Origin: an uncultured Deferribacteres bacterium
GTDB lineage: Bacteria > Zhuqueibacterota > Zhuqueibacteria > Zhuqueibacterales > Geothermadaptataceae
Direction: 5' to 3'
Assembly (NCBI GenBank): GCA_964014485.1
Contig: CAXHAT010000146.1
Location: 1-20,583, forward strand
DNA: 20,583 nucleotides
The position numbers and the translations under genes are program-made. The notes below the pieces were generated by a model. It was given only the letters and a program-made list of their open reading frames with translations. It searched no databases and was not told the DNA's origin. This document shows, piece by piece, positions 6,188 through 16,670 of this stretch; position 1 is the stretch's first letter, and every line of letters starts with the position of its first letter.

Positions 6188-6218
6188 ATTCTGTTTTCAG
6201 GTTTACAGTATGGCAATG

Positions 6219-6246
6219 GTAGAGACGCGATGCATCGCGTCTCTAC
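6219..6246. repeat. GTAG-type REP-like perfect palindrome, copy 1
   Basis: GTAGAGACGCGATGCATCGCGTCTCTAC is a 28-bp perfect palindrome; identical copy at 12461-12488. Confidence 0.9.
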
Positions 6247-7153: not shown

Positions 7154-7819
7154 ATGCACAGGCAAAGACCAAGACCAATTTTCATTGTATTTTCAATCAT
7201 CATTTTATTCTTCGGTTTGACCGCATTTTACGCAAAGCGTGCAAACAACGACGCTAAAAATATTTTGTTTTTTGGCGACAGTTTAACCGCCGGCTACGGT
7301 CTCGATCCTTCCGAAGCGTTCCCGGCTCTGGTTCAGAAAAAGCTCGATTCTTTGAAGCTCAATTTCAAAGTCATCAACGCCGGGTTGAGCGGCGAAACGA
7401 GTGCGGGCGGCTTGCGGCGCATCAACTGGGTTCTACAAAATAAAGTCGATATTCTCGTGCTTGAACTTGGCGCCAACGACGGTTTGCGCGGCATCTCGCT
7501 TGACGACACCGAGCAAAATCTGCAAAAAATCATCAACGCCGCACGGAAAAAATATCCATCCGTTCGCCTTGTGGTTGCCGGAATGAAAGTGCCGCCAAAC
7601 CTTGGGCCGGAGTATTCGAAACAGTTTGAGACGATTTTTCAGGAACTCGCTCAAAAAAACGAAGCTGCGCTCATTCCGTTTTTATTGGAAGGCGTCGGCG
7701 GCGTGCCCGAACTTAATCTCCGAGATCGCATTCATCCAAACACCGAAGGCCACAAGCGCGTTGCGGAAAACGTGTGGCAAGTCTTGCAAGCACTGGTGAA
7801 AAATGACAAAGTTGAATAG
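7154..7819 (+). CDS. tesA: SGNH/GDSL arylesterase (acyl-CoA thioesterase I / TesA-like), exported
   Basis: FGDSLTAGYG, NAGLSGETS, ELGANDGLRG and DRIHPN, plus a hydrophobic N-terminal signal or anchor. Confidence 0.9.
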   Translation: MHRQRPRPIFIVFSIIILFFGLTAFYAKRANNDAKNILFFGDSLTAGYGLDPSEAFPALVQKKLDSLKLNFKVINAGLSGETSAGGLRRINWVLQNKVDILVLELGANDGLRGISLDDTEQNLQKIINAARKKYPSVRLVVAGMKVPPNLGPEYSKQFETIFQELAQKNEAALIPFLLEGVGGVPELNLRDRIHPNTEGHKRVAENVWQVLQALVKNDKVE

Positions 7820-7847
7820 GTTTTCTGATAATATCATCGGCCCCGAC

Positions 7848-7916
7848 GGCATTTCAGCGCACGCGGGAATCCGGAACCAACGAAGCGCTATAGATTCCCG
7901 TCTGCGCGGTAATGAC
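7848..7916. repeat. Degenerate GTCATTCCCGC...GCGGGAATGAC-type palindromic repeat (CGTC/dRS3-like)
   Basis: GGCATTTCAGCGCACGCGGGAATCC (7848-7872) matches the reverse complement of AGATTCCCGTCTGCGCGGTAATGAC (7892-7916) at 19/25. Translates to DSRLRGND, a peptide I recognise from this repeat type. Confidence 0.75.
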
Positions 7917-7971
7917 CGAAAGCAAGAGTTCTCTATTTGTCAAGACTTCCGGAAATGCTTCGATCGCGTTT

Positions 7972-8081
7972 GGAAAGTCCCTGCCTTGCCATTCCGCAGG
8001 AATTTTTTTAGGCCACCAGGAATGAACGTTCCCGCAATTTTTGCGGAAAAGGTTAAAAAAGATGCTTCCAGCATGACAAAT
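7972..8081 (+). repeat. ~110-bp palindromic element (TTGTCATTCC...AGATGCTTCCAGCATGACAA family), copy 1
   Basis: Imperfect inverted arms starting at 7986 and ending at 8079 (17/24). Gap-free 85/110 match to the reverse complement of 13311-13420 (hand count). Confidence 0.88.
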
Positions 8082-8114
8082 CCGGCCTTTTTCGCCAGCT
8101 TTAGAAGCCTATAC

Positions 8115-8134
8115 AAAAAGTGTCAGGTAGTGAA
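8115..8134 (+). repeat. Solo copy of the MITE-like terminal inverted repeat
   Basis: AAAAAGTGTCAGGTAGTGAA is identical (20/20) to 16651-16670. Confidence 0.85.
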
Positions 8135-8141
8135 TTCCAGC

Positions 8142-9842
8142 ATGACAATTCGGGGTTTTGCAAATACACGCTTACAACTTGCCGCCGGATTATTTTTAAA
8201 AATCGCACTATTGATCTTGCTGGCCGGCTGCAGCAGTTCTCGTAATAGCGCGCTCCCGGAAACGCCCGTCTTTCCTGCTCAGCCTGATGATCCAGGCGTT
8301 GGAAAAATGCCGGTAATTCGTGTAAGTCTTATCGAAAACGTCAACAAAATCCGTTTTGAGATCGACCACGATTTCGCCGTCTACGACGCGCAAGGGAAGC
8401 CGATCATCCAAAACGCGTCCGGCAGATATTGGGAGGCGACCGTCGCTTCCGCCGCTCCGGTGAATCCCGAATATCGCCTGAGATACGCAACGGTTACAAG
8501 CAGACGCGAGGCGCAGCGCAAACGCATCGAATTGACGGGGAAAAACATTTTTCCTGACATCATCGAGAGAAAATCGAAACTGGACGATGTGACCCGCAAA
8601 ACCTACCACATCGTTTTGCGTCAAAAATTTGACAACGAAGCTGCCGCACAAGCAAAGCGCAGCGAAATGGCGCAAAAAGCGTCTTTCGAAGTGATCGATT
8701 TGCACGCTGACGTTATTTCGGGGGAAATTGAAGTGCGCAACCGAGAAACCGGCGTTTCTTACACTTTCCCTTCCGGGGCGCTCTTTCGATCAAAGCGATT
8801 CACGCTGCACGATGTTCCTGTTGGACAAGGTTTTCATTGGGAGAAAAAAGAAACGCGCAAATTCCGGGAAACCTTCACGCTGCGCGTCAACAGCGGCGGC
8901 AAACTGACCATCATCAATTCTGTCCCGCTGGAAAACTATCTGCTCGGCGTGGTGCCTTCGGAAATGCATGGAAAATTTCCGCTCGAAGCGTTAAAAGCGC
9001 AAGCCATTGCAGCCCGCACAAAAGCGATGCTTGCGTTGGCAAGCGAAGAAAACGAGCACAAGGAAAAGGGGTTCGACTTGTGCGCCACCGTGCATTGCCA
9101 AGTCTATTCCGGCTCCGATCGCGAAACGTCCGCTACGAATGAAGCAGTCGCGCAGACATTTGGCAGCGTACTTCAAAATCGCGGCGCTTTGGTGCAGACG
9201 ACGTACATGGCCGTTTGCGGGGGACATACGGAAAACAATGAAAACGCATGGGACGGCCCCGCCCGCTCCCACTTGCGCGGCGTTTTTGATGGTCAAGGGG
9301 CTCCGGGGCTTCTGGGCGATTTTCTGACAAATGAATCGTACGTCGAAAAGTGGGTTTCCCAAAACAGTCCGGCAAACTGCAATCTGGTCACAGTCGATGC
9401 GCCCGAATCGATGAATTACGCGAAGAAATATTTCCGCTGGCGCGTCAAGGAGCGCAGGGCAAAAATAGAAAAAGCGCTTCGTGAGGCTACCAAGGAAGAC
9501 TTTGGGCAACTCCGTGATATTCTGCCGATTCTTCGCGGCGTTTCAGGGCGCATCAAAAGGGTCAAAATTATCGGCACGAAGAAAAGCTTTTCCATCGACA
9601 AGGAATTGAACATTCGCCGTGCGCTGCATCCGCAAACATTGTACAGCTCATGTTTTATTGTCAAAAAAAGCTTTCAAGACGGGGCCGGGCTGCCGGAAAC
9701 GTTCACTTTTATCGGCGCTGGCTGGGGGCACGGCGTCGGCATGTGCCAAATCGGGGCGGCGGGCATGGCGAGAAAAGGGGCTGATTTTGAGACGATTCTA
9801 ACGCGTTATTACAACGGCGTTGAAATCGCGTCGGCGTATTGA
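8142..9842 (+). CDS. SpoIID/LytB domain lipoprotein (peptidoglycan lytic transglycosylase-like)
   Basis: LENYLLGVVPSEM, EALKAQAIAART, DLCATVHCQVY and GAGWGHGVGMCQIGA..MA, with lipobox LLAGC. The ORF extension 7803-8141 is largely repeat DNA, so the start is placed at ATG 8142, giving a 29-aa signal peptide. Start position uncertain. Confidence 0.88.
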   Translation: MTIRGFANTRLQLAAGLFLKIALLILLAGCSSSRNSALPETPVFPAQPDDPGVGKMPVIRVSLIENVNKIRFEIDHDFAVYDAQGKPIIQNASGRYWEATVASAAPVNPEYRLRYATVTSRREAQRKRIELTGKNIFPDIIERKSKLDDVTRKTYHIVLRQKFDNEAAAQAKRSEMAQKASFEVIDLHADVISGEIEVRNRETGVSYTFPSGALFRSKRFTLHDVPVGQGFHWEKKETRKFRETFTLRVNSGGKLTIINSVPLENYLLGVVPSEMHGKFPLEALKAQAIAARTKAMLALASEENEHKEKGFDLCATVHCQVYSGSDRETSATNEAVAQTFGSVLQNRGALVQTTYMAVCGGHTENNENAWDGPARSHLRGVFDGQGAPGLLGDFLTNESYVEKWVSQNSPANCNLVTVDAPESMNYAKKYFRWRVKERRAKIEKALREATKEDFGQLRDILPILRGVSGRIKRVKIIGTKKSFSIDKELNIRRALHPQTLYSSCFIVKKSFQDGAGLPETFTFIGAGWGHGVGMCQIGAAGMARKGADFETILTRYYNGVEIASAY

Positions 9843-12460: not shown

Positions 12461-12488
12461 GTAGAGACGCGATGCATCGCGTCTCTAC
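12461..12488. repeat. GTAG-type REP-like perfect palindrome, copy 2
   Basis: Identical to 6219-6246; lies between convergent genes. Confidence 0.9.
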
Positions 12489-12541
12489 AATTCGACTCTT
12501 GAGTCAAATGCAAAAAGCTTAATTTTTGAATAGAACTGTTC

Positions 12542-12564
12542 GCAAAGCAAGCTTTGCACTCCTT
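12542..12564. repeat. Solo arm of the GGAGTGC-tagged repeat
   Basis: GCAAAGCAAGCTTTGCACTCCTT is identical (23/23) to 361-383 and abuts the oxidoreductase stop codon. Confidence 0.85.
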
Positions 12565-15500
12565 TAAATCAGCGCTTCGTTTAGAATTTCAATCGGGTGC
12601 TTGGCGCGGCGGCCGCTGCCGTGTTCGATTTGGCAGCGACAGCTAAAACCGCTGGCGGCAATGATTGTGTCGTCCGCTTGCTCGCGCACTTTTGGCAAAA
12701 GACGGCGCTCGGCCATTTTTATCGACACATCGTAGTGCTCGGCTTCGTAGCCAAACGATCCAGCCATGCCGCAGCAGCCCGAGTCGACTTCTTCCACCTC
12801 ACACTCAGGCAATAAATTCAGCATGTTTTTCACCTGCCCAGTTCCGACAAGCGATTTCTGGTGACAGTGACCGTGCAGTAAAATTTTGCATGCACCCTGC
12901 GAGAATTTCAGCGCCGCCTCTCCGTTTTCCGCGGCGTCCGTCAGGAATTCTTCTATCAAAAATGACTGTTTTGCCACGCGCTTCGCCGCCTCGCGATCCG
13001 AGGTCATGTACAAATACTCGTCGCGCAAGGTCAAAATGCAGCTCGGTTCCAGTCCGACTATGGCAAGGCCTTGCCTGGCGTAGACGTCAAGAACGCGCAC
13101 GGTTTCATCCGCCAGTTTCTTCGCTTGCTCGGCGAGTCCTTTTGAAATCATCGGTCGTCCGCAGCAGCGATGGCCGGGCAAAATCACTTCGTAGCCCGCT
13201 TTTTCCAGCAAATTCACCGCTGCACGCGCAATGTGTGGTTCATTGCACGAACTGAACGTATCATTGAAAAACACAACACGCTTCTTTGACGCCAGGTTTT
13301 GAGCACCTTGAATTATCATGCTGGAAGCATCTTTTTTATAATTTTCCTTTGAAGCTGCGAGAACGTTCTTACCTGGCGGGTTAAAAAGATTCCTCCGGAA
13401 TGACAATAGAGGGGCTTTCTGAGCATCCTTTACTGAACCGTTTCTCGTGTGCGCTTCAAACCATTTTTCAAAAGGCTGTTTTGCAAAGGGCGGCAAGGTT
13501 CGTTCAGCGCTCACGCCAAGCAGGGATTGCGCAATTTTCCTGGCAAGACCTGTTTTCATCGCCGAATTGATCAAAGGCGCCAAACGCCCGGCTCCGAACC
13601 GGCTGATACGCGCGATGTTGCCAAAAACTTTTGACCGCAGCGGCGTTTTGTTCTTGTCATAATATTGCGCCAAAAACTCGAACTTGACCTTCGCCATGTC
13701 CACGGATGACGGACACTCCGCCTTGCACGCCTTGCACTCAACGCACAAATCCATCACGTCGAACATACGCTTGCCTGTTAATTCGTTCGTGGGCAACTTG
13801 CCGGACATGGCGGCGCGCAGAGCGTTGGCGCGACCACGCGTGCTGTGCTCCTCTTCCTGCGTGGCCATAAAACTCGGACACATCGTGCCCGTCGTGGTTT
13901 TGCGGCAAATCCCGGCGCCGTTGCACATTTCTACCGCGCGGTCAAAGCCTTCGTCGGCGCTAAAATCGTATTTCGTCTGGAGCTGAACGGCGGAATATTT
14001 TTCGCCGTAGCGCAGATTTTCGGTAATGTCCTGCGGATTGACCACGACACCGGGATTGAAAATATTGTGCGGGTCAAAAGCTTGCTTGACTTCCTTGTAC
14101 AAATTGTACAACGCTTCGCCATAAAAATACGGATTCAGCCAACTGCGGCAGCGCCCGTCGCCGTGCTCGCTGGCCAGGGAGCCGCCGTATCCGCCAAGCA
14201 GTTCCGCCGAAAATCGCCCGATCTTCGGCAGTTTTTCAACGTCACGTGCGTCTTTAGCGTTAATCAGCGGACGAATGTGGATGCATCCAGCGCTAGCGTG
14301 AGCGTAATAAGCCACATTCGTGCCCAAGTCGTTACAAAATTTTTCAATGCGCGTCACGTACTCCGCCAGATACTCGGTCGGCACGGCGGCGTCTTCGATG
14401 AACGGTATCGGCTTGTGGTCGCCCTTGATGCTCATCATCAGGCCGAGGCCGACCTTGCGAACCGTCCAGACATTGTCCTGTCGCCATTTTTCCAGCGCAG
14501 GAACAAGTTCGGCGCGCACTTTTTCTCGGCGTAAATGTTGTTCAAGCTGTTCGACTTTTTGTTTTAACTCCTTGTCAGACTCGCCGTAAAACTCGGTAAT
14601 CAAAATGCAGTTTGGCTGGCCGCTCAGGAAAGTTTTGAGCAGGCGGGCGTATTGCGGCACTTCACGGCAGAGCGTCAAGCCCAGATTATCCATCATTTCC
14701 ACGGCGGAAGGCTGCACTTCCAAAATTGTCGGGACAGCGGAGAGCGCTTCAAACAAGCTCTCGAATTGAATGATCGCCAGCGCCGTCTTTTTCGGACGAG
14801 GCACGAGGTTGAGTTTAATTTCCGTGATGACGCCAAGCGATCCCTCTGCCCCGCTCAAAAGTTTGGCCAGATTAAAACCGGGCTGCTGCGGTCCGCGGAA
14901 GTTCGCGCCTTCGATGAACCGGTCGAGATTGTAGCCGCCGCAGCGCCGCCAATGTTTGGGCGTACCTCGCAAAATCGTTTCTCGGTTTTCCGCCGCGATC
15001 TCAGAGATTTTTTGGTAAAGCGCCCTTTCCAACCCGCCGCTTTTCTTTTTTTGCGCCAACAAGTCATCATCAAGAGCGCGAAAATGAGCTTGCGAACCAT
15101 CACTCAACAAAGCCTTGATTTCGAGCACGTGATCGGCGGTCATTCCGTACATGATCGAATGACTGCCGGTGGAGTTGTTCGAGACTATGCCGCCCATCGC
15201 TGCGCGGTTGCTGCTGGCGGGGTCAGGGCCGAACTGCAGACCATATTTTTGCAGATGCAAATTGAGCACGTCGAGCACCACGCCGGGCTGGACGCGCACC
15301 CATTTTTCTTCCCGATTGACCTCAATGATTTCGTTTAGGTGACGAGAGAAATCGATAACCAAAGCTTCGTTGACGGCTTGCCCGGCAAGGCTGCTGCCTC
15401 CAGTGCGCGCCAACAGCGGAATCTTGAATTTTGCCGCTTCTTCAACCGCCGCCTGCACGTCGCCGCGAGATTTTGGCAGCAGCACGCCGTGCGGCGTCAT

Positions 15501-15620
15501 CTGGTAAATACTGGCGTCCGTGCTATAGAAAATCTTTGAGTATTCGTCGGTTCGAAGCTCGCCGTCAACACGTTTTTTTAGAGAATTCAAAAAATCAGGT
15601 AGCGCCGTTTTTGTCTGCAT
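12564..15620 (-). CDS. FAD-binding and (Fe-S)-binding oxidoreductase (GlcD/GlcF fusion, YdiJ-like 2-hydroxyacid dehydrogenase)
   Basis: YSTDASIY, GGSSLAGQA, GPDPAS, GAEGSLG, HASAGCIHIRP and EHGDG; Cys clusters CNGAGIC and CVECKACKAECP; CCG domains CCGRP, HGHCHQK and CCGMAGSFG. Carries a 40-aa repeat-derived insert. Confidence 0.93.
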   Translation of the reverse strand: MQTKTALPDFLNSLKKRVDGELRTDEYSKIFYSTDASIYQMTPHGVLLPKSRGDVQAAVEEAAKFKIPLLARTGGSSLAGQAVNEALVIDFSRHLNEIIEVNREEKWVRVQPGVVLDVLNLHLQKYGLQFGPDPASSNRAAMGGIVSNNSTGSHSIMYGMTADHVLEIKALLSDGSQAHFRALDDDLLAQKKKSGGLERALYQKISEIAAENRETILRGTPKHWRRCGGYNLDRFIEGANFRGPQQPGFNLAKLLSGAEGSLGVITEIKLNLVPRPKKTALAIIQFESLFEALSAVPTILEVQPSAVEMMDNLGLTLCREVPQYARLLKTFLSGQPNCILITEFYGESDKELKQKVEQLEQHLRREKVRAELVPALEKWRQDNVWTVRKVGLGLMMSIKGDHKPIPFIEDAAVPTEYLAEYVTRIEKFCNDLGTNVAYYAHASAGCIHIRPLINAKDARDVEKLPKIGRFSAELLGGYGGSLASEHGDGRCRSWLNPYFYGEALYNLYKEVKQAFDPHNIFNPGVVVNPQDITENLRYGEKYSAVQLQTKYDFSADEGFDRAVEMCNGAGICRKTTTGTMCPSFMATQEEEHSTRGRANALRAAMSGKLPTNELTGKRMFDVMDLCVECKACKAECPSSVDMAKVKFEFLAQYYDKNKTPLRSKVFGNIARISRFGAGRLAPLINSAMKTGLARKIAQSLLGVSAERTLPPFAKQPFEKWFEAHTRNGSVKDAQKAPLLSFRRNLFNPPGKNVLAASKENYKKDASSMIIQGAQNLASKKRVVFFNDTFSSCNEPHIARAAVNLLEKAGYEVILPGHRCCGRPMISKGLAEQAKKLADETVRVLDVYARQGLAIVGLEPSCILTLRDEYLYMTSDREAAKRVAKQSFLIEEFLTDAAENGEAALKFSQGACKILLHGHCHQKSLVGTGQVKNMLNLLPECEVEEVDSGCCGMAGSFGYEAEHYDVSIKMAERRLLPKVREQADDTIIAASGFSCRCQIEHGSGRRAKHPIEILNEALI
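13311..13420 (-). repeat. ~110-bp palindromic element, copy 2, inserted in frame within the oxidoreductase CDS
   Basis: Inverted arms 13406-13383 and 13313-13336 (19/24). 85/110 identical to 7972-8081. Flanked by TGAGCA at 13300-13305 and 13420-13425, 120 bp apart. Confidence 0.88.
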
Positions 15621-16397: not shown

Positions 16398-16455
16398 CGG
16401 CATTTGAGAATTTGGCGACGAAAGAACTTTGAAGGCTCGTTTTTCGTCAACCGAA

Positions 16456-16670
16456 CTCACTACCTGACACTTTTTATCATGTCACCCCTGTCGGGGTTTG
16501 GCGGGCGTGATTTTATTCAAATTCTCTATAATCATGTCATCCCTCCGGGATTTTCGCCTCAAAACAACCCCGGAGGGGTGGAAAGATTATAGAAAATGAA
16601 CGAAAAAACCTCTCCAAAAACCCCGCAGGGGTGAAATAAAAGCATCTCGTAAAAAGTGTCAGGTAGTGAA
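16456..16670. mobile_element. 215-bp MITE-like element carrying four nested REP-like hairpins
   Basis: Perfect 20-bp inverted repeats TCACTACCTGACACTTTTTA (16457-16476) and TAAAAAGTGTCAGGTAGTGA (16650-16669). AACCGAA on both flanks (16449-16455, 16671-16677). No transposase. Confidence 0.8.

Follow-up and report, generated by a model that had tools for sequence, protein, structure and literature searches.

Rickettsia palindromic elements (RPEs; Ogata et al. 2000, 2002) are palindromic repeats of about 100-150 nt that lie in frame in housekeeping genes, add an extra peptide to the encoded protein and leave the host genes intact, as described in the available parts of PMC10969869 and PMC3733652. 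RPE-4 and RPE-6 have been assigned to the CGTC-REP superfamily (Di Nocera et al. 2013, PMC3733652). Repeats of this CGTC-tagged class carry a terminal CGTC or TGTC tag, stems of 8-9 bp that begin with AT, loops of 4-5 nt and CCA-like tails, and mostly form inverted dimers. Some copies lie within genes, and in the available part of that account no dedicated tyrosine transposase is known for them (Di Nocera, De Gregorio and Rocco 2013, PMC3733652). A related kind of repeat, the NTS and Ssn-related motifs, consists of oriented hairpins framed by GTCAT...ATC, whose stems show compensatory changes. These repeats stand on both sides of small single-domain GIY-YIG genes, and genes and repeats co-occur across genomes, according to the part of the report available to us (Chenal et al. 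2025, PMC11893778). Concerning mobile elements, the available part of PMC12016507 describes the IS1031 group of the IS5 family as preferring TNA targets and generating 3-bp repeats.

In this study, we analyse a palindromic repeat that lies in frame in an oxidoreductase gene. The window, that is the whole stretch of DNA analysed, comprises 20,583 nt. The insert is probably a decayed 141-nt MITE that entered the linker of a YdiJ-like protein in frame, most likely by means of an IS1031-type transposase acting in trans, that is now read as a loop predicted to be disordered and that carries hairpins of the kind linked to Ssn nucleases. The repeat family, the empty sites of homologues, the frame arithmetic, the target duplication of the family, the association of genes with hairpins and the low confidence of the loop are direct results, while we infer the transposase family and the nuclease activity in this scheme. 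In-frame insertion of a mobile element is a known kind of event, met here in a new bacterial lineage, and the gain is therefore incremental. A first-pass annotation of the window had called the element possibly undescribed, a description that goes too far, as publications already cover MITEs, the insertion of MITEs and REPs in frame, and hairpin repeats of the Ssn type (PMC10969869; PMC3733652; PMC11893778). The locus is a clear example, from outside Rickettsia, of an intact enzyme in which a palindromic mobile element has been preserved as a fossil. The tolerant site is mapped, the sum 141 + 3 = 144 nt accounts exactly for the frame, and the loop is predicted to be disordered. Moreover, it joins three literatures, those on MITEs, on CGTC-tagged REPs and RPEs, and on Ssn-nuclease hairpins.

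Results and discussion

An extra segment in the linker of an intact oxidoreductase

The gene and the inserted copy with its parts are located as follows.

12564..15620, minus strand: intact host gene; its 1018-aa product is a YdiJ-like FAD-linked oxidase in fusion with a 4Fe-4S dicluster and CCG domains
13290..13430, minus strand: decayed MITE-A copy of exactly 47 codons, residues 731-777 (KDAQ...QNLA), placed by subfamily HMM and codon phase
13383..13406, minus strand: 5' arm in gene orientation, TTGTCATTCCGGAGGAATCTTTTT, an intact hairpin with TGTC tag, 5-bp stem ATTCC/GGAAT and 3-nt loop
13313..13336, minus strand: 3' arm, AAAAAGATGCTTCCAGCATGATAA, with the ATGCT/AGCAT hairpin kept and the tag mutated (ATGATAA versus ATGACAA in the family)
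13297-13305 and 13417..13425, no strand: TT[T/C]TGAGCA direct repeats, 8/9 matching and 120 nt apart, inside the family's terminal inverted repeat region
13287..13289, minus strand: TCA adjoining the element on its 3' side; together with the TCA at 13434-13436 it is a candidate for the TNA target duplication, a speculative reading

The host ORF contains FAD_binding_4, FAD-oxidase_C, Fer4 and CCG domains, and its conserved Cys and His columns are invariant over 29 sequences, the host protein among them. The frame is open over all 1018 aa and the gene is intact. We infer that the oxidoreductase is still expressed and active with its insert.

The insertion site lies in a linker of variable length that joins the Fe-S/helical part to the first CCG domain. 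From W to VV this linker measures 61 aa in the host protein versus 7-28 aa in 54 full-length metagenomic homologues, 43 of which have 16 aa. The insert is absent from all of these homologues (54/54) and from every usable orthologue locus in relatives (18/18). Thus the alignment gap that had been predicted for this site is found in all usable homologues, and the proposal of a mobile palindromic repeat inserted in frame stands. A same-species empty-site allele was also sought in metagenomes; the best relatives are 63-69% identical, so none of them belongs to the same species. No empty-site joint across the insert was seen in contigs, which have a depth of only 2-5 here and drop rare variants.

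The insert belongs to a genome-wide family of MITEs

Used alone as an nhmmer query, the inserted stretch gave 215 matches in the 8.4-Mb genome, a repeat-rich draft of 465 contigs, a number far above chance expectation. After iteration about 319 non-overlapping copies were obtained, of which 226 reach 100 nt or more, and in-frame copies turned up in three further real genes. The subfamily of the insert, MITE-A, is 141 nt long; its ends are GAGCGTATTTGGAAAG, and it duplicates 3-bp TNA targets. Among 32 unique full-length loci, 22 measure exactly 141 nt, 21 have TNA on both sides, and 20 have identical 3-nt flanks, as compared to 0, 0, 0 and 3 of 32 at four control offsets. Intact copies end in terminal inverted repeats of about 19 nt, with GAGCGTATTTGGAAAGTCC and its complement at both ends. 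The ends are also given as GAGCGTATTTGG, which a cognate IS1031-group element would carry. Between the ends lie two short hairpins, inverted relative to each other, of the form TGTCAT-NNN-loop-NNN'-ATC with a T run behind it.

Terminal inverted repeats, a target duplication, small size, high copy number and the lack of a transposase gene mark the family as MITEs. The 'GAG' ends of MITE-A presumably fit the IS1031 group. Its 3-bp TNA duplication is shared with this group and with IS-derived MITEs, as far as the available part of the source describes them (PMC12016507), and terminal inverted repeats, small size, non-coding character and many copies are further features in common with IS-derived MITEs. 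It differs from the IS1031 group in that searches revealed no cognate transposase gene flanked by matching ends. A genome search for end pairs with the 16-nt terminus (up to 3 mismatches) returned mostly random solo matches and no autonomous IS. None of the 10 PF01609 and 2 PF13586 loci has matching ends in the draft genome, which may hide one that does, and searches of the genome with PF13359 and PF13340 gave no match. Likewise, 40 relatives yielded no obvious candidate for an autonomous partner with MITE-A ends. The 19-nt terminus itself has 62 matches in the genome studied, 0-7 in each of the 40 relatives and none in 9 genomes of the same family. No Rfam family reached the gathering score in the window, and six loci gave only two chance-level matches.

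A subfamily HMM built with the inserted copy left out aligns positions 9-126 of 141 to 13422-13305, with an envelope of 13430-13293; the outer ~10 nt on each side are not recognisable as family termini. The median identity of the inserted copy to the 32 full-length copies is 68%, versus 85% among those copies, and it is the most diverged member of the subfamily. Its DNA fold energy is -17.1 kcal/mol (z -1.29), compared to -33.8 kcal/mol (z -7.35) for an intergenic copy; the local hairpin of the 5' arm is present in the MFE fold. The inserted copy is old and now probably unable to move.

The first-pass annotation had read residues 735-774 correctly and had estimated the insert at 40 aa. The family boundaries give 141 nt, or 47 codons (residues 731-777), and since 141 + 3 = 144 nt, the insert amounts to about 47-48 aa. 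The same annotation had noted the TGAGCA repeats, whose 8/9 match and spacing of 120 nt we find as described, and had taken them to flank the insertion. Both copies lie inside the terminal inverted repeat region of the family, whose duplication is the 3-bp TNA, so it is improbable that these repeats arose by duplication of the target of the inserted copy. Under the 141-nt model the flanking triplets of this copy differ (GTA versus TCA). Reading the two TCA triplets as the duplication requires 3 extra bases at the 5' end of the element.

The repeats could instead mean that a core of 120 nt moved, duplicating a target of 6-9 bp (TT[T/C]TGAGCA) and adding 40 aa, which we regard as unlikely. In favour of such a core, the 8/9 direct repeat has a spacing of exactly 120 nt and brackets the family-alignable part, and removal of 40 aa would leave a linker of ~21 aa, within the range of the homologues. 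Another MITE family in the genome does make longer duplications, of ~7-9 bp as judged by eye in 3 copies, but its outer ends, TCACTACCTGACAC..., are absent from the inserted copy. The closest relatives of the inserted copy, moreover, all extend to GAGCG...CGCTC ends with TNA duplications, and the HMM envelope reaches beyond both TGAGCA copies. On our reading of the alignment, comparing the terminal repeats as direct repeats already gives about 6/8 identity, so that a match of this kind becomes more likely. The 141-nt model, for its part, offers no explanation for an 8/9 repeat placed where the alignable part ends, unless that repeat arose by chance aided by the self-similar TTTGGAAA/TTTCCAAA terminal repeats.

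Frame and fate of the inserted segment

Under the 141-nt model the history of the locus may be reconstructed as follows. A MITE of 141 nt would have inserted, most likely through a transposase of the IS1031-group (IS5-family) type supplied in trans, into the tolerant linker before the first CCG domain of the YdiJ-like oxidoreductase. With its 3-bp duplication it would have added 144 nt and so kept the frame; as the downstream frame was kept and the frame used held no stop codon, the gene would have survived. The segment would then have become a translated loop, and decay of the copy would subsequently have removed its terminal repeats, its capacity to form the long hairpin and one of the hairpin tags.

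An AlphaFold2 model of the host protein has a mean pLDDT of 85.5. Values below 50 occur only at residues 1-3, 569-579 and 729-776, the last being the insert, and the 10-residue blocks on either side of it score 94-96. The inserted segment is thus predicted to be a translated, disordered loop of ~47-48 residues.

Copies deep in genes are rare: only 4 of the 226 long copies lie at least 100 codons inside an ORF, and the frame used in the host is stop-free in only 6 of the 32 full-length MITE-A copies. The repeat family is not coding-adapted, and the term 'coding-compatible' that had been applied to it is not supported as a family trait. Besides the oxidoreductase, in-frame copies lie in genes for a GH38 mannosidase, an Amidase_3 protein and an FAD monooxygenase, the last of which has no close orthologue among 20 relatives. 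The comparison with RPEs made in the first-pass annotation is sound, even more than that annotation could show, in that four genes carry in-frame insertions and the arms have a TGTC tag and an AT-first stem, as in the superfamily of RPE-4 and RPE-6; this TGTC/AT-stem signature is what the arms share with these two elements in the available description of the CGTC-tagged class (PMC3733652). RPEs differ in the large share that lies in ORFs and in their conserved peptide. The element described here has, in contrast, clear terminal repeats and TNA duplications, stems of 5 bp instead of 8-9 bp, and a host from a phylum other than that of Rickettsia.

Could the host have put the insert to use, for instance with the loop giving the linker a useful length, or with the in-gene hairpins offering a nuclease site? 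The copy is old, as its median identity indicates, yet open in frame in a gene whose cofactor residues are all conserved, and four genes carry such copies. Nevertheless, disorder is predicted for the loop, the repeat family is strongly depleted within genes, and codon changes relative to the intergenic copy are mostly non-synonymous (12 vs 3, the count of the earlier annotation only). Co-option is accordingly a doubtful reading, to which we give little credence.

The inner hairpins and small GIY-YIG genes

The hairpin arms claimed for the insert are present at 13383-13406 and 13313-13336. In the family they read TTGTCAT..., with a TGTC tag, an AT-first stem of 5 bp, a loop of 3 (sometimes 4) nt and a CTTTTT tail. 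Genome-wide there are 271 hairpins of the form GTCAT-NNN-NNN-NNN'-ATC, 76 of which are GTCATGCTGGAAGCATC. An inverted pair of small hairpins is also the layout of a REPIN, and the genome has 8 Y1_Tnp loci. That the insert is a REP doublet moved by a RAYT tyrosine transposase, and not a MITE, is nonetheless very improbable: within 1.5 kb of the 8 loci there is neither a hairpin of this type nor a copy of the family, the tag is TGTC and not GTAG, and MITE-A makes target duplications. REPINs are not known to make any. A link of the hairpins themselves to RAYT was rejected for the same lack of hairpins within 1.5 kb of these loci.

The hairpins are instead associated with genes for small GIY-YIG proteins. 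The genome has four such genes, each beside its own hairpin type (C86 and C156 among the loci). Over 11 genomes, short hairpins stand beside the gene in 11 of 12 loci, the one of this genome included (10 of 11 from related genomes); control loci contain only 3 hairpins in a total of 93 kb. Of 40 relatives, 15 have a close orthologue (E <= 1e-29), and each of these has at least 6 matches to the arm motif; of the 25 relatives without one, 24 have at most 8 matches, the related genomes being non-independent samples. The exception (G013, 100% complete) has 13 arm matches and no close GIY-YIG orthologue. In this order of bacteria the genes encode proteins of ~100 aa, form one clade and are flanked by hairpins. 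The protein has a Pfam GIY-YIG match and matches the PDB entry 1ZG2 (UPF0213, E 1.8e-7); NCBIfam has no family for the C86- and C156-type proteins. It is 44% identical to a paralogue whose gene lies beside the canonical NTS core, GTCATTCCCGCGCAGGCGGGAATC, of which the genome holds 153 copies.

Since short-stem TGTC hairpins flank small GIY-YIG genes, they can be linked to the CGTC-REP, NTS and SRM repeats, and by their sequence they class as a short-stem variant of this group. With CGTC-tagged REPs they share the terminal tag, the AT-first stem and the mostly inverted pairing, along with the occurrence of some copies in genes and the lack of a known tyrosine transposase dedicated to them; the published stems and loops are longer, and a CCA-like tail takes the place of the T run found here (Di Nocera, De Gregorio and Rocco 2013, PMC3733652, in the part available). 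With the NTS and Ssn-related motifs they share the oriented hairpin in a GTCAT...ATC frame, the compensatory stem changes, the repeats on both sides of the GIY-YIG gene and the co-occurrence of both. They differ, relative to what the available part of that report describes, by the 5-bp stem, the 3-nt loop and their carriage inside MITEs, and 0 of 4 arm strings match the motif (PMC11893778). The published degenerate SRM motif, which gave this result, finds 251 other sites in the same genome. This suggests that the motif is too narrow, since hairpins with short stems, which flank a separate clade of small GIY-YIG genes, escape it.

The hairpins are likely to be recognition sites of an Ssn-like ssDNA nuclease that hitchhike in at least two unrelated MITE shells. 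Going further, and only tentatively, the TGTC hairpins with 5-bp stems might mark a separate specificity class of Ssn-like GIY-YIG nucleases missed by the SRM motif, whose sites would have spread to hundreds by riding in two unrelated MITE shells, one with TNA and one with longer duplications, some now being permanent parts of proteins. The same pair of TCC-type and GCT-type arms also recurs in Flavobacterium, Taibaiella and Calditrichia records, which points to either cross-phylum exchange of the hairpin module or a shared functional constraint.

Assembly and the second copy in the window

Contigs from two public runs of one study, which may be the very sample from which the window was assembled, span both junctions of the insert with 0 differences (13279-13665 and 13223-13608), so that the junctions are not an artefact of this single assembly. 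An assembly or binning error, with a repeat collapsed into the gene, could be imagined in so fragmented and repeat-rich a draft but is hardly credible given these contigs, a frame exactly kept and a copy that is the most diverged of its subfamily, the opposite of a collapsed repeat.

The other copy in the window and the arm next to it are located as follows.

7962..8090, plus strand: second copy, MITE-A type, HMM positions 2-129, E 2.9e-34
8135..8159, plus strand: isolated arm fragment, TTCCAGCATGACAATTCGGGGTTTT, containing an ATG at 8142, ahead of the lipoprotein-type signal sequence of a SpoIID-like protein

The ungapped match of about 110 nt reported between the two copies is real: 7973-8082 and 13310-13419 are 78% complementary over 110 nt without gaps. 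An origin of the insert by local duplication from 7973-8082 was rejected, as the repeat family is genome-wide. At its right end the second copy continues into the terminus of a different MITE family (to ~8134). The copy had been read in the frame of the SpoIID-like ORF, and the frame is indeed open. It does not lie inside the conserved protein: homology to orthologues of this 679-aa ORF begins at residue 130-169, and the copy is upstream of the conserved coding sequence. Inserts of this kind matter for annotation, as they make proteins longer and, as the SpoIID-like ORF shows, give rise to spurious N-terminal extensions.

An insertion in the linker of the oxidoreductase

The oxidoreductase gene contains an in-frame insert, and its main features are as follows.

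Features of the host gene and the insert copy
12564-15620, minus strand: host ORF, 1018 aa, open, with FAD_binding_4, FAD-oxidase_C, 4Fe-4S dicluster and CCG domain
13406-13383, minus strand: 5' arm, on the gene strand TTGTCATTCCGGAGGAATCTTTTT, imperfect inverted repeat with the 3' arm
13336-13313, minus strand: 3' arm, on the gene strand AAAAAGATGCTTCCAGCATGATAA, imperfect inverted repeat with the 5' arm
13297-13305 and 13417-13425: TT[T/C]TGAGCA repeats, read directly from the sequence

The arms, these short repeats and the open host ORF are as the first-pass annotation had described them, and so is the pairing with a second copy: a repeat search of the window aligned 7973-8082 with 13310-13419 over 110 nt, ungapped, at 78% identity. 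A gap of about 40 aa had been expected in homologues and was found. Nineteen orthologous loci were fetched from 30 relatives and 18 were usable, one (L049) being dropped because its longest ORF is another gene; about 44-45 residues are absent at the insert site in all 18. Among 74 metagenomic loci, 54 carry ORFs of at least 850 aa; in these the linker from a conserved W to the VV of VVLFNDTF measures 7-28 aa (16 aa in 43), compared with 61 aa in the host protein. The closest relatives reach at most 63-69% identity, hence there is no same-species allele among them. Both insert junctions were crossed with no differences by contigs that had been rebuilt from two public runs of a single study; a joint skipping the insert was not found in these contigs, which are of low depth and may derive from the source sample.

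An AlphaFold2 model from a 29-sequence alignment (mean pLDDT 85.5, pTM 0.84) falls below pLDDT 50 solely at residues 1-3, 569-579 and 729-776, the adjoining blocks scoring 94-96. In keeping with the surmised loop, the insert thus appears as a low-confidence loop between well-predicted flanks, and it is predicted to be probably disordered; the length of the surrounding linker varies naturally. The Fe-S and CCG cysteines do not vary in the alignment, host protein included, and there is no sign of a pseudogene.

The insert as a diverged MITE copy

With the insert stretch as sole query, nhmmer gave 215 matches in the source genome (8.4 Mb, 465 contigs). Three iterations yielded 319 non-overlapping copies, 226 of them at least 100 nt long, and the insert is therefore not a one-off duplication. 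The copies closest to it form a subfamily, MITE-A. An HMM built without either window copy found 32 unique full-length loci, of 141 nt (22), 142 nt (6), 140 nt (3) and 113 nt (1), with GAGCGTATTTGGAAAGTCC or its complement at both ends. Flanking triplets are identical in 20 of the 32, versus 0, 0, 0 and 3 at control offsets, and TNA stands on both sides in 21. A 3-bp TNA duplication is the signature described for the IS5-family IS1031 group (PMC12016507), the same as seen in the MITE-A flanks. The majority subfamily, of about 205 nt, has the MITE-A core but other ends (TCTCTACCTGACAC...), and its duplications, judged by eye in three copies, are longer (about 7-9 bp). Perfect inverted ends of 20 nt (TCACTACCTGACACTTTTTA...) delimit a 217-nt element at 16453-16669; they are identical to those enclosing the majority subfamily, but the interior, with GC-rich hairpins, is different. 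One such end also lies at 8115-8134, adjoining the second window copy.

HMM positions 9-126 of 141 align to 13422-13305 (envelope 13430-13293). Projected to full length, the insert copy occupies 13290-13430, exactly 47 codons (residues 731-777, KDAQ...QNLA); the in-frame insertion thus stands, and its size of 40 aa is to be revised. An intact MITE-A with its duplication adds 141 + 3 = 144 nt, so that the downstream frame is always kept; beyond this arithmetic, insertion into a gene needs only a stop-free reading.

The insert had been taken for a 120-nt unit flanked by a 6-9-bp target duplication, TT[T/C]TGAGCA. The repeats are present. They lie, however, within the part equivalent to the terminal repeats and are therefore probably not a target duplication, and MITE-A is flanked by TNA; we consider the 120-nt anatomy improbable. 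For the MITE-A copy itself, the flanking triplets under the 141-nt model are GTA and TCA, and a TCA...TCA duplication would require a 5' end longer by 3 nt. Within its subfamily the insert copy shows the greatest divergence (median identity 68% versus 85% among the others). Its outermost bases are unlike the family ends and the GTC tag is gone from the 3' arm. A typical intergenic copy forms a long DNA hairpin (-33.8 kcal/mol, z -7.35); in the insert copy this hairpin is gone (-17.1 kcal/mol, z -1.29), and 18 of 200 shuffles fold equally well.

In-gene copies beyond the host gene, and the window's second copy

Only four of the 226 long copies, the host-gene copy included, are flanked on each side by 100 or more open codons. 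The other three are listed here.

In-gene copies outside the host gene
GH38 alpha-mannosidase: residues 662-697, opposite orientation; gap of about 18-20 aa in orthologues
Amidase_3 protein: residues 410-449; gap of about 28 aa in orthologues
FAD_binding_3 monooxygenase: residues 232-268; no close orthologue in 20 relatives

The frame used in the host gene is stop-free in 6 of the 32 full-length MITE-A copies, and open frames overall amount to 8.9% versus 5.6% in shuffles. Open reading in the host frame is not general to the family, and the proposal of a coding-compatible family is not borne out. A fifth in-gene case may be the copy at 8420-8534 of contig C251 (L035): in the ORF of a HisKA_3/HATPase_c histidine kinase it occupies residues 89-127, in frame, and follows a signal-like N-terminus.

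The second window copy, previously read as part of the SpoIID-like protein, lies inside the open frame 7803-9842. The orthologues (open frames of 546-569 aa, against 680 here) align only from residue 130-169 on, which places this copy upstream of the real coding sequence. The likely start codon of the SpoIID-like lipoprotein, ATG 8142 (MTIRGF..., then a lipobox-type signal), falls inside an isolated arm fragment (8135-8159); the repeat may thus have furnished the start codon.

Hairpin arms and GIY-YIG genes

Each arm contains a small hairpin, GTCAT-NNN-loop-NNN'-ATC, with compensatory stem changes across copies and genomes (GCT/AGC, TCT/AGA, TCC/GGA, GCC/GGC). Hairpins termed SRM, related to the NTS (CGTCATTCCCGCGMAVGCGGGAATCYRG), are reported to flank genes of small GIY-YIG nucleases (Ssn), which cleave single-stranded DNA (Chenal et al. 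2025, PMC11893778). The source genome has four paralogous GIY-YIG genes of about 100 aa each, every one adjoining a different hairpin type.

GIY-YIG genes and neighbouring hairpins
C343:150-446: canonical core GTCATTCCCGCGCAGGCGGGAATC, the exact Neisseria-type NTS core
C229:3596-4048: three GTCATACCTGCGCAGGCAGGTATC
C86:29769-30068: short GTCATTCTGTAAGAATC-type hairpins in inverted pairs, both sides
C156:9783-10145: GTCATTCAGGAGGAATC-type hairpins, both sides

Downstream of the C86 gene, seven hairpins in 218-nt tandem hairpin-pair units run to the contig end. Short hairpins adjoin the C86-type gene in 11 of 12 loci (11 genomes), with 3 in 93 kb of controls. Among 40 relatives, which are non-independent samples, 15 have a close C86-type orthologue, all with at least 6 arm-motif matches; 24 of the 25 without it have at most 8, the exception being G013 with 13. 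None of four short-arm sequences fits the published SRM motif, which occurs at 251 other sites in the source genome (153 of them canonical core). C86-type orthologues with in-frame TGA stops occur in two relatives, G020 (2 stops) and G024 (1 stop), and may be decaying nuclease genes; arm-motif matches persist there (9 and 22).

Relation to known repeats and distribution

CGTC-tagged REPs are described as having a tag that is often TGTC, AT-first stems of 8-9 bp, mostly inverted dimers and, according to that source, no known transposase; dRS3, RPE-4 and RPE-6 are placed among them, and REPs inside genes are on record (Di Nocera et al. 2013, PMC3733652). The arms agree with them in the tag and the AT-first stem, not in stem length. 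No RAYT association of the repeat hairpins was found in the source genome, and no Rfam match for the repeat. For intragenic MITEs, in-frame fusions are called 'not unusual', with RPEs as the extreme case (PMC10969869). In-frame insertion of MITEs and REPs is already in print (PMC10969869, PMC3733652); the earlier suggestion of a possibly undescribed family goes too far, and the novelty is modest. New are the lineage, the IS1031-like MITE shell with a hairpin pair inside, the short-stem hairpin variant, which the published motif misses and which has a GIY-YIG clade of its own, and, in the linker of an enzyme, a well-documented fossil copy.

With 3 or fewer mismatches (reversed-pattern control 0 everywhere), the arm motif gave 233 matches in the source genome. 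It was present in 19 of 19 sister-family genomes (1-125 matches each), 3 of 9 same-family genomes and 1 of 12 from the remaining families of its class. With 62 matches there and 0-7 elsewhere, the MITE-A terminus is essentially limited to the source genome. Across species genomes the arm occurs in at least 63 loci; the matches listed include KSB1, Calditrichota and 'Gemmatimonadota' MAGs as well as Flavobacterium, Chryseobacterium, Taibaiella and Runella, and among them the same TCC-type and GCT-type arm pair often recurs. In Bacteroidota, GTCATTCCGTAGGAATC is paired with GATGCTTACAGCATGAC in L116 (a Flavobacterium MAG contig), L106, L110 and L143, in L116 as four head-to-tail units of 93 nt. 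The hairpin module recurs across phyla.

Other repeats in the window

An exact 23-nt repeat with a small palindrome inside (GCAAAGCAAGCTTTGCACTCCTT) lies at 361-383 and 12542-12564, the second copy abutting the oxidoreductase stop codon. A 28-nt perfect palindrome starting GTAG (GTAGAGACGCGATGCATCGCGTCTCTAC) has two identical copies, at 6215-6246 and, about 70 nt past the oxidoreductase gene on its 3' side, at 12461-12492; it resembles either a terminator-like hairpin or a GTAG-tagged REP. A 7-nt tandem repeat, (ACAGCTC)n, opens the contig (1-54).
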